DNA of 64,000 bases from a virus: UHGV virus genome UHGV-0179803; one strand, 5' to 3'. The position numbers and the translations under genes were made by a program. The notes below the pieces were generated by a model. That model ran no database searches and had not been told where the DNA came from. It saw only the letters and a program-made list of their open reading frames with translations. Below, piece after piece: positions 49,279-55,086 of the stretch (positions are counted from its first letter, which is position 1; the number at the start of each line of letters is the position of its first letter).

Positions 49279-52200
49279 ATGCTTCCAATTCCTCTGTTAA
49301 AACTTGCTAATTTCCATCTGGACTCGAAGGATGGGATCAAGGAACTTGCTGTTCTGTCCTACCCAATAGATAAAAGTGATGGTACTAGCAGCACAGTATC
49401 TTATGTAAACAGTCTTGCAATTCTTTATGCAGATGGTTTGCTCGTTCTGACAGGCGCTAACAAGTATGGCGAATGTGGAACAGGTAATCGCAACGAATGC
49501 ATTTACCCGAACGAGTCGATCCGCAACATCGATCATGTCTGGAGAGCAGATCGTTCTTTCGTGGTTGAAACTTTTGATCATGAATTCTTTTACATCGGCT
49601 GCACAGCGGGTCTTATTGGCTCCACAGCGGCTGGTGGTAACGATGTTTGTGTAACCCAGTGGACTGCACTACCTTCACAAATTACGACCACTCTGGGGCT
49701 TGATAAGCACCCAGAACGCTTGCTTGAAGTTTGCGGTGGGATGAACAACACTTGCTGGGTAATTGGTGCACCTGAAGGTGAAGGTATCTGGGATATCTAC
49801 GGTTCAGGCAACAACACCTACGGTTCTTTGCATGTGGATAAAAACCAACATGCCAACCCTGTTAAAATTGCTGAAACTTCTCAGGATCCTGTAACAGGGC
49901 AGTGGAAAAACCCAGCACTAAATCTGGAGGTCCACGATAACTCTGTGATCTATGGTGGCCCAGATGGCTACTGGATTGCTGGTTACGATTTCCTGCGCAA
50001 TAATAGTGAGCTTAATCTGGTTTATCCACCAGAACACGGGACATGGGCAGCTTTGACAGGCAGCAGTGAAACCTACAAATGGTTCATGTGTGGTCCGAAT
50101 GGGGCTGTAGTTGCTACAGAGCGTAATCACACAGATGGTATACCTGTGTATGTATTCCGTGGACAGAATTCCTGGGGTGATAAAACCTGGCGCCCATTGA
50201 ACCTCACCTATACCCATGAAGTGATTATTGCACAAGGTCATGCTACTAACGGCATCTTCTTTAATAACGGTACAAAACAGTACAGAGGTTTCTCTCGTAA
50301 CCTGTGTAACGATATTGGCTGGTCGTCTGCTGAAGCCAACCCTCGTGCACAGTTCCAGCACAAGCAGGCAATTGCTACAGCTGCATACGTCGAACAACGT
50401 ACACCTGTTAGTTGGGCTGAGAACGTATACTTCCAGGGCATCAACCGGGAAGGTTACTTGGGCACACTAACTGTGGTAAACGGTAAACTTTGGTGGTCCG
50501 GTATTCCTCGTGGCAGCTTCCCAGGAAGCAACAACCTGTTTGGAGGCCAACTCAATTCTCAAGGTTTTACACAGGTAGACCCGAACTGGATTAAGAACGT
50601 TCCAGTATCCAGTTTTGAGGTTGAAGAAGTTATTAGAGTCAACGGTTGGGGGACTGAGCGCCCTGTCAGTAACATTTATATTGGGGATACTGTTCAGCTC
50701 AGAATTAAAGCTCTACCAAGAGGTGCTACATGGTTTGTAGACAAAGTTGAGATCACAAATGCAGCACAAACTGTTGTAAGCGATCCTCTGTATACTGCAA
50801 CCATTAACCACAACGTGTTTGGTGTATGGGATAGTATTGTTACCCAACAGAATAAAAACGTTGATCGTCGTGGACTGTACCATGTTAAAATCACCTACCA
50901 TGATAAAAATGGTACTCACACACATCTAACCAGAAACATCAACTGGAACACGATTGTACCTGTGATCCCTTCGGATAGTACATGGTACACTCAAGGTCTG
51001 AGCCGCTCTTTGTCTTTGGGCAGCACAACCTATTTGGGTCTGGATACTGCACAACCTGCAACTGAAAATGCTGACGCTTTTAAAATCAGATTACACAGGA
51101 AAGATGCAGGCTCTGTGACCTATGATGTGACACAAGAACTTTACAACCAACGCCGTGAAATGTATAACTTCCTGGTCACTCATCAGGCACTGTGGGAATA
51201 CAACCCGAACGGTGCTGGTGGTAAAATGTATCAGGCCAACGAACAGAACGGGACTTCTCTGAACATCCACTCAGATAAAAACCCGTGGGCTACGCCTGAA
51301 AGACCTCCTAGCTGGGCACGTACTCTGAAAGTTGTCAGCTACGACGCAGGTTTCTTTGGTTTGCGTTGGGAATCAACAATTGAATACTATGATGGTACTC
51401 ACCAGAACATCGGGTTAACCCTTGGTGGGGATTCTGCCAGCACTTCACGTAAGATTGTCCGTACGCCACGCGGTGTGGATATCTCTGTTGATCTTGTTAA
51501 GAACAGTTATGGGGATATTCAGGCGCATGTAACACCTGCTGAGGCTGCGAATAATATATCTTATAATATTGCGGCATTCAAAGAGGATCCTCGCGTTGTT
51601 GGTGCGCACGATGCCGACTGGTATTACACCATTACACCCACTGCTGATACTACCAACTTCATGTTAGGTATGAAACGTGACATGCAGAAAAAACTAGGTG
51701 TTACTGACCTGTGCTACGTTTGCATTAAAGATACCCGTGTTAAAGATACGGATCCTGAAGCAAAATGGTTTACCGTTGACCCGAATACCATACGTAGTGA
51801 TAAGTTTGTTAACGAATATATCCTGTGCGCTGGCGGTACTAACCTGAACTTGTTCTGGAGTGAAAACGCTGATAAATATTGTAGTTATGATTACTTACGT
51901 GATTATTGCTGTAACCAGTGGTTTACCAACGGCAACGGCTATGTGCCTCGCCAATGCCAGACACTGCCAGCCATCTTCACAGATAACCAGACATTTTTGC
52001 TGAAACAGGCTAATGAAGTTCAGGTTGATAAAAACGGGTATGATGGAACCAAATGGTTCTTTAACTGCTATGCTCAGTATTATTGGGGTCCTGGGGAGCT
52101 TCTCAGTGATGCAGGTTGCAATCTGATGGATAAAGAAATAGGCTCATGGACTCATATGAACCAAACCTGCAACTTTATTCCACAGAACGCAACATCTGAG

Positions 52201-55086: not shown

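Follow-up and report, generated by a model that had tools for sequence, protein, structure and literature searches.

The virus genome UHGV-0179803 was analysed over a stretch of 64,000 nucleotides (the window), whose largest open reading frame (ORF) lies at the end of a cluster of tail-fibre genes. This gene, called here the giant gene, is an orthologue of gp27 of phage rV5 and encodes a protein of 213 kDa, in which a conserved N-terminal end is followed by Ig-like beta-sandwich domains and by a core that has relatives only within its own family. The plus-strand frame is open without interruption from 49267 to 55086, the likely start is its first ATG, at 49279, and the stop codon ends at 55086. 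The chance of finding about 1935 sense codons in DNA of 45% GC is roughly (61/64)^1935, about 1e-40, which indicates a real gene. The sequence around the ribosome-binding site, TGGAGAACACAATG, is the same in rV5, with no differences. A preliminary description of this DNA, made from the letters alone, had given the same coordinates and had called the gene the largest of the window; both statements agree with the frame and with the list of ORFs, while the length of 1937 amino acids (aa) given there exceeds the translation by two residues.

49269-49272, + strand: ribosome-binding site GGAG, six bases 5′ of the ATG, read from the sequence
49279-55086, + strand: coding sequence of 1935 aa plus stop, rV5 gp27 orthologue (PHROG 15684), assigned by PHROG, tblastn and gene order

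Membership of the gp27 family is indicated by both homology and position. The protein matches PHROG 15684 over nearly its full length (1924 bits, E 0), and tblastn found 107 records of rV5 gp27 and its orthologues that share 46-52% identity with the query and cover 88-99% of it. Word-indexed homologue searches returned family members only; megablast of the gene DNA against 50,697 phage genomes gave no match, and the relatives emerged only at the protein level. As in rV5, the gene is the last of the fibre operon, after a gp28-like gene and before a terminator, and the gene order from gp37 to gp27 together with the two-way terminator is the same in the window, rV5 and the BASEL phage EmilHeitz. 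Existing annotations of the orthologues read 'Ig-like domain-containing protein' or 'lateral tail fiber protein with intimin domain'; the family is annotated in more than 100 genomes and is so far uncharacterised. The window gene is a divergent new copy of this already annotated family and not a new kind of system, which limits its surprise value.

The window derives from a 139.5-kb metagenome contig (ENA ERZ1034815, NODE_8), which encodes exactly this protein, and its close relatives (77-90% identity) come from metagenome assemblies only. The head and packaging genes of the window show ~76% DNA identity to Vequintavirus over ~35% of a 25-kb stretch. From this divergence and from the purely metagenomic origin of the close relatives, the phage is an uncultivated rV5-like myophage whose distance from Vequintavirus is roughly that between genera. 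In the search with the head-gene DNA, a few records matched at 95-99% over short pieces.

In every related genus examined, the giant gene or its equivalent is the final gene of the late tail-fibre operon, including nieznany (Phapecoctavirus), PVP-SE1 and 4MG. The length of this last gene varies from 567-604 aa in Seunavirus to 891 aa in Phapecoctavirus, 1878 aa in Vequintavirus and 1935 aa in the window. The upstream order is that of rV5: a 1556-aa fibre comes first, followed by wedge and baseplate proteins, a 692-aa fibre, a pair of paralogous short tail fibres that flank a chaperone, and a gp28-like fibre whose gene stops at 49231, directly before the giant gene. All genes adjoining the latter belong to tail or baseplate families. 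The two short tail fibres and the gp28-like fibre upstream bear out the earlier view that the gene closes the fibre cluster. The following elements surround it:

43953-44993, + strand: short-tail-fibre paralogue 1 (PHROG 4465)
46032-47096, + strand: short-tail-fibre paralogue 2 (PHROG 4465)
49238-49259, + strand: GC-rich hairpin followed by a T-rich stretch, probably a leaky terminator or an attenuator (terminator scan)
55113-55131, both strands: two-way intrinsic terminator hairpin with seven G-C pairs (terminator scan)

The upstream hairpin fills the gap that separates the end of the gp28-like gene from the GGAG of the giant gene. A GC-rich hairpin with a run of T after it is found at the equivalent place in five lineages, namely the window, rV5 (locus L001, 15960-15981), nieznany (L003, ~8964-8984), PVP-SE1 (L004, ~6843-6864) and 4MG (L005, ~6962-6984), with stems of different sequence. 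The downstream hairpin begins 27 bases past the stop of the giant gene, and minus-strand genes converge on it; two-way terminators are annotated at the equivalent place in rV5 and PVP-SE1. As the hairpin scores on both strands, the bidirectional terminator proposed in the preliminary description is confirmed. The presence of terminator-like structures on both sides of the gene suggests that it is expressed by read-through, below the level of the fibre genes. Between the two short-tail-fibre paralogues lie the chaperone gene and a small gene. Vequintavirus proper has been described as arranged in this way, whereas a single copy of the short tail fibre is present in the phi92-like and Seunavirus groups.

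The architecture of the protein was drawn from sequence searches, identity comparisons and AlphaFold2 (AF2) models, the latter run on halves of ~1000 residues with 16-sequence alignments and scored by the predicted local distance difference test (pLDDT). The resulting map, from the N- to the C-terminus, is as follows:

49279-50598, + strand: aa 1-440, M-x-P-I-P peptide and RCC1-like beta-propeller (Pfam matches below cut-off, PDB profile matches)
50611-50964, + strand: aa 445-562, Ig-like beta-sandwich (AF2, pLDDT 62-83)
51016-51783, + strand: aa 580-835, beta-rich region, probably two beta-sandwich domains (AF2 strands, pLDDT 52-77)
51784-52110, + strand: aa 836-944, cysteine-rich region (cysteine positions; AF2 pLDDT <50; no Pfam or PDB match)
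52111-52653, + strand: aa 945-1125, hypervariable cassette, candidate ligand-binding module (identity comparison)
52654-53313, + strand: aa 1126-1345, tryptophan-rich block with many invariant residues (dense invariant columns; AF2 pLDDT <50)
53326-54213, + strand: aa 1350-1645, some three beta-sandwich domains confined to the window clade (AF2, pLDDT 50-86; Foldseek)
54226-54483, + strand: aa 1650-1735, Big_2-type Ig-like domain 1
54490-54738, + strand: aa 1738-1820, Big_2-type Ig-like domain 2, resembling intimin D2
54751-55083, + strand: aa 1825-1935, mixed beta/alpha C-terminal domain (AF2, pLDDT 73-83; alignment)

The most conserved segment is formed by aa 1-440, with 72% identity to rV5. 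Its M-x-P-I-P start is invariant across the window protein, rV5 gp27, nieznany gp214, PVP-SE1 gp40 and 4MG_038, and occurs in no other protein of the window. A profile made from the N-terminal parts of these five proteins (A5) matched several blades of solved propellers in the PDB, among others the RCC1-like domain of HERC1 (2.3e-7), HERC2 (8.4e-6), UVR8 (~1e-4) and RPGR (4e-4). The similarity to RCC1-like propellers is thus seen with profiles, while the window protein stays below the Pfam gathering cut-offs of PF25390 (23.7 bits versus 150) and PF00415 (13.2 versus 21.7); the PF00415 cut-off is exceeded by the orthologues PVP-SE1 gp40 (36.1), 4MG_038 (36.9) and nieznany gp214 (24.3). Two clear RCC1-type signatures, G-x-N-x-YG, are found at aa 59-69 and 175-185, together with about five looser ones; by eye, this gives about seven motif positions at a spacing of ~55 aa, and internal repeats are weakly detectable (E about 0.01). 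The propeller probably has seven blades, a number that we infer because the AF2 model is unreliable in this part (pLDDT <50 for aa 143-441). The repeated G-x-x-YG-x-x-G motif on which a beta-propeller had been proposed in the preliminary description is literally absent, but the propeller itself is backed by the profile searches. It should be added that PHROG 11922 tags the N-terminal module as 'tail protein', a label that is itself putative. In Septuagintavirus W70, the RCC1-like proteins W70_237-239 were detected in virions by tandem mass spectrometry (PMC11370258), and hhalign relates W70_237 to the N-terminal profile (92.7%, E 4e-7). Propellers thus occur in virions of the subfamily, which lends contextual support to a place on the virion. 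In Table S6 of that paper the PVP-SE1 locus tags are off by one with respect to the GenBank gene numbers, and therefore its orthologue pairings are unreliable at the PVP-SE1 locus.

The beta-sandwich domains that follow the propeller are recognised mainly by fold. The one at aa 445-562 is the counterpart of the first Big_2 domain of the shorter orthologues; its residues 502-554 match the Pfam family Bact_surface_Ig-like below the cut-off, and the BLASTP alignment to nieznany gp214 extends to aa 525. The region 1350-1645 has only 14% identity to rV5. In the window protein PF02368 (Big_2) gave no match even at E up to 10, and only related Ig families appeared, below their cut-offs; the PF02368 cut-off of 22.8 is passed at the aligned domain by the rV5-type orthologues P0015 (33.5 bits) and P0014 (27.9 bits). 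The Ig-like beta-sandwich fold nevertheless lies near known Big_2 structures, even if the Pfam gathering score is not reached. Foldseek searches of the PDB and BFVD returned mostly generic tandem-Ig arrays, with likeness to cadherins, titin, NUP210 and S-layer proteins, and no sequence repeats were found among the beta-sandwich domains. The two Big_2-like segments that had been recognised at the C-terminus in the preliminary description are upheld by the fold comparison and by a PDB match to intimin D2. The last domain, aa 1825-1935, is kept in both clades with the motifs PQW..W.G, GAYP.P.GTS, YIPE, FGYS and SGW.G, and gave no match in a PDB sequence search. Its interpretation as an intimin-like, disulfide-bonded lectin tip was tried and dropped, since the rV5 clade does not keep the cysteines and the similarity to intimin ends at D2.

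Between these two parts extends an orphan core, aa 836-1660, which had no match in the PDB, Pfam or NCBIfam. A HMMER profile of this core, searched against 1.84 billion representative proteins, retrieved family fragments and one ankyrin-repeat false positive only, and the best that single-sequence and profile searches of the PDB gave for the full protein and the core were meaningless matches to ribosomal L24, a T-cell receptor chain and carbonic anhydrase (E ~0.14-1.6). Because the searches with the core are empty outside the family, ~40% of the protein is lineage-specific. Within it, aa ~1010-1125 are predicted to form a beta-sandwich (AF2 pLDDT 60-79), and aa 1126-1345 are the part best conserved between the two clades.

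The distribution of sequence conservation along the protein is very uneven. Identity to rV5 falls from the 72% of the N-terminal segment to 14-35% in aa 1301-1935, the least conserved part. Over aa 945-1110, the window protein and P0007, otherwise a close relative, share only 23% identity, against 63% between P0007 and the rV5-like P0015. Similarly, P0011 is 28-47% identical to the window protein over a cassette at 441-835 and 86-94% identical in the flanks, and in P0013 it is the C-terminus that differs. Lineages swap the middle and C-terminal parts of the protein as cassettes. As such exchange is typical of proteins that contact the host, this mosaic divergence suggests a role in host contact. 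The gene is also degraded in some phages: at the APCEc02 locus (L007, 2501-5173) it is represented by three short ORFs in 2.7 kb, at the V18 locus (L008, 4001-8563) by four ORFs in 4.6 kb, and several further records annotate the gp27 gene as two pieces. APCEc02 and V18 are plaque-forming isolates, natural knock-outs which show that loss of the gene is compatible with viability. Published genetics has assigned the known receptors of the group to other proteins, the primary receptor, the ECA/NGR glycan (ECA, enterobacterial common antigen), to the fibre with a deacetylase domain and the terminal receptor, the core of the lipopolysaccharide (LPS), to the short tail fibres (PMC8594841; PMC7229145; bioRxiv 10.64898/2026.04.02.716166).

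With middling confidence, we favour the view that the giant protein is an accessory adhesin, non-essential and present in few copies, which the virion holds by the conserved N-terminus. Its accessory character is suggested by the degraded loci of APCEc02 and V18 and by the assignment of the receptors to other fibres. We infer the association with the virion from the position of the gene in a late structural operon, from the Ig-like domains and from the mosaic evolution. According to this model, the N-terminal peptide and the propeller would dock onto a conserved partner in the baseplate or the fibre network, and the Ig-like chain would form an extended and flexible stalk, probably different from a classical intertwined trimeric fibre. 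The variable cassette (aa 945-1125) and the C-terminal Big_2 and terminal domains could then touch glycans or proteins of the cell surface, weakly or specifically, so that encounters would become more frequent ahead of the binding of the dedicated fibres to their receptors, the NGR/ECA glycan and the LPS core. Expression, and hence the copy number, would be held low by the conserved upstream hairpin. Of the three functions offered in the preliminary description (adhesin, depolymerase, and capsid or tail decoration), that of adhesin fits best.

Several points speak against the accessory adhesin. In rV5 virions analysed by multidimensional protein identification technology (MudPIT), gp27 was represented by three non-tryptic or half-tryptic peptides, with 3.1% coverage (PMC3606486, Additional file 5, Table S5); the hit has the same quality as that of the non-structural rIIA, and the main text of the rV5 paper omits gp27 from the detected proteins. 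These three poor peptides are the sole direct evidence for the virion association claimed in the preliminary description, which is thus not established. Electron cryomicroscopy placed no orthologue, either in the two studies of phi92 or in work on phiTE. The AF2 model of the first half has a mean pLDDT of 43.5, with an unusable propeller, and that of the second half 58.9, usable at ~1000-1125 and 1350-1935; residues 836-1000 and 1126-1340, like the propeller, lack a trustworthy structure. The oligomeric state of the adhesin, its attachment site and its ligand are all putative, and the mechanism would be another one if the strongly conserved orphan block 1126-1345 were an enzyme, as it could be. 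Finally, the splits of the gene in database genomes can in part be sequencing errors, but the shortening of ~3 kb in APCEc02 cannot. As a separate observation on the rV5 data set, the low-coverage calls gp27, rIIA gp1 and gp228 are based on non-tryptic peptides with poor rank scores (PMC3606486), and these calls should not be taken to show that the proteins belong to the virion.

Other explanations of the same data have been considered. The almost complete lack of proteomic support for virion association, the hairpins that insulate the gene on both sides and its dispensability would all suit a late protein that is not part of the virion and acts in the infected cell or after lysis, as a released decoy or adhesin or as an envelope factor. 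Such a protein is rather unlikely here, as the N-terminus has no signal peptide or transmembrane segment, at least four genera keep the gene at the end of the fibre operon, receptor-binding proteins typically show such a mosaic of cassettes, and the N-terminal module carries the (putative) 'tail protein' label of PHROG 11922. We also regard as improbable a virion-borne enzyme, be it a depolymerase, an esterase or a glycosidase, in which the block 1126-1345 would be catalytic, with an uncatalogued fold, and the propeller and Ig-like domains would be carbohydrate-binding accessories. This possibility draws on the glycan-hydrolysing and deacetylase domains of other fibres of the phage group (PMC8594841), on the abundance of invariant Glu, Asp, His and Trp in block 1126-1345 across clades otherwise 50% identical, and on the weak SASA esterase match of phi92 gp153, which adjoins the orthologue gp152; the orphan region 836-1660 may be a new catalytic fold. 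Against it, no recognisable catalytic domain was found in Pfam, NCBIfam or PHROGs, the PDB profile searches gave nothing, the exhaustive HMMER search revealed no relatives outside the family, and a beta-helix signature is missing. For the depolymerase of the preliminary description in particular, no catalytic or beta-helix domain was found in Pfam, NCBIfam, PHROGs or the PDB, and this proposal is unsupported.

The Ig-like domains also invite a comparison with decoration proteins of the head or the tail tube, of the type of Hoc or of the C-terminal domain of lambda gpV, which would adhere weakly to mucus or cell surfaces. Big_2 and Ig-like domains are typical of such proteins, the Big_2 capsid decoration protein gp29 (9kmh) appears in the sequence searches, and the giant gene is dispensable. 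However, the likeness is restricted to the generic Ig fold, the gene sits in the fibre and baseplate operon and not in the head module, and 213 kDa is about five times the mass of known decoration proteins. Furthermore, ~100 or more copies should stand out in the rV5 mass spectrometry, where the coverage is 3.1%, and rV5 already has an abundant decoration protein, gp61, with 85% coverage. A decorating role on capsid or tail, the third function of the preliminary description, is thus possible but fits poorly with the size and the apparent low abundance; the protein does not group with Hoc-like capsid decoration proteins, and we consider this explanation distinctly improbable. The annotation of the BASEL collection implies yet another role, since the legend of its figure S5C counts gp27 among three large variable fibre genes (PMC8594841): that of one of three essential trimeric lateral tail fibres, acting as a primary receptor-binding protein. 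The position in the fibre operon and the allelic variation agree with it, but it is hard to reconcile with the rest of the evidence, and its probability is very small. Searches of Pfam, PHROGs and NCBIfam revealed none of the trimerisation elements of classical fibres and tailspikes, be it a coiled coil, a beta-helix, a collar or a C-terminal intramolecular chaperone (peptidase S74); the separate domains fold confidently as monomeric beta-sandwiches in AF2 and match monomeric tandem-Ig arrays. In addition, the gene is degraded in viable phages, the Seunavirus orthologues have only ~570-600 aa (a propeller and two Big_2 domains), other fibres account for the receptors of the group, and the published likeness to the phi92 tailspike gp150 was not reproduced (best BLASTP E 0.28).

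A bolder version of the accessory adhesin would treat the gp27/gp40/gp214 locus as a distinct class of non-trimeric appendage of the phage surface, anchored by M-x-P-I-P and the propeller, to which the Vequintavirus branch would have added a core of 800 residues with folds that no other sequenced protein has; the tryptophan-rich block 1126-1345 would then be a new glycan-processing or receptor-binding domain, relevant in the gut, with its capsules, mucus or biofilms, and not on laboratory lawns. We hold this extension to be doubtful.

Beyond the terminator, a minus-strand ORF of 527 aa (56013-57596) converges on the giant gene. Its C-terminus is a YadA-like membrane anchor (PF03895, 65.5 bits versus a cut-off of 22.7), preceded by a long coiled-coil-like region, and it matches PHROG 17426, 'adhesin', at 3e-43. 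This layout is typical of a trimeric autotransporter adhesin, yet it is found here in a lytic phage; at the same place rV5 has just small hypothetical genes.

The rV5-like phages are among the most often isolated coliphages and form part of cocktails for therapy and biocontrol. They adsorb with several kinds of fibre, for which the genes have been assigned only in part, and gp27 is the largest protein of these phages. The elements of this analysis that may be new are the domain map, with its conserved N-terminal and variable C-terminal ends, the orphan core, and the reassignment of phi92 gp152 explained below. The map, the swapped parts, the orphan core and the corrected phi92 counterpart show where to aim engineering, deletions and structure determination. 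If the protein truly serves as an accessory adhesin in natural habitats, it could affect the performance in vivo in ways that are unseen in plaque assays.

With respect to known systems, the more distant likenesses concern single domains. The intimin and invasin adhesins and the Leptospira Lig proteins share Big_2 arrays with the window protein, but the likeness exists at the domain level only: of the barrel, Big_2 array and lectin-like tip that define intimin and invasin, only Big_2 matches were found, there is no beta-barrel or LysM anchor, and the PDB match covers D2 and stops short of the lectin-like D3 tip. The NCBIfam intimin model gives 21.5 bits in the rV5 orthologue, against a cut-off of 1400. 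Decoration proteins of the T4 Hoc type are reportedly strings of Ig-like domains, dispensable in the laboratory, for which weak adherence is said to have been proposed. The window protein differs from them in that its conserved end is N-terminal, its gene belongs to a fibre operon and its mass is 213 kDa. The W70_237-239 proteins consist of the propeller only (~380-400 aa) and are encoded outside the structural module, unlike the window protein.

The nearer relatives occupy the same locus. In phi92, gp152 (202 aa, annotated as 'tail protein, lambda V-like fold'; L006, 3321-3929) is found at the same place by the fibre genes, begins with MYPIP and carries a Big_2 pair with 40% identity to residues 396-582 of PVP-SE1 gp40, the propeller being deleted. 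Judging from these features, the phi92 counterpart of gp27 is gp152 and not gp150; the published likeness of gp27 to the N-terminus of gp150 did not reappear with the window protein in BLASTP. The next gene, gp153 (L006, 4096-4983), has its SASA sialate-acetylesterase match at E 0.008. According to its record it has no ribosome-binding site, and what is seen at the phi92 locus may therefore be the 891-aa gene of Phapecoctavirus in split or rearranged form. The members related to PHROG 11922, nieznany gp214 (891 aa), PVP-SE1 gp40 (604 aa) and 4MG_038 (567 aa), share the locus, the M-x-P-I-P start, the propeller, Big_2 domains and the upstream hairpin, but they lack the extension of ~1100-1300 residues, made of the orphan core and extra beta-sandwiches, which characterises the Vequintavirus-type proteins. 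The closest known system is rV5 gp27 itself (YP_002003529). It differs from the window protein mainly in the region 1301-1650, which is 14-32% identical, and in a different allele at 945-1110 (27%), whereas both have in common full-length homology, the position of the locus, the propeller, the orphan core and the C-terminal Big_2 pair.

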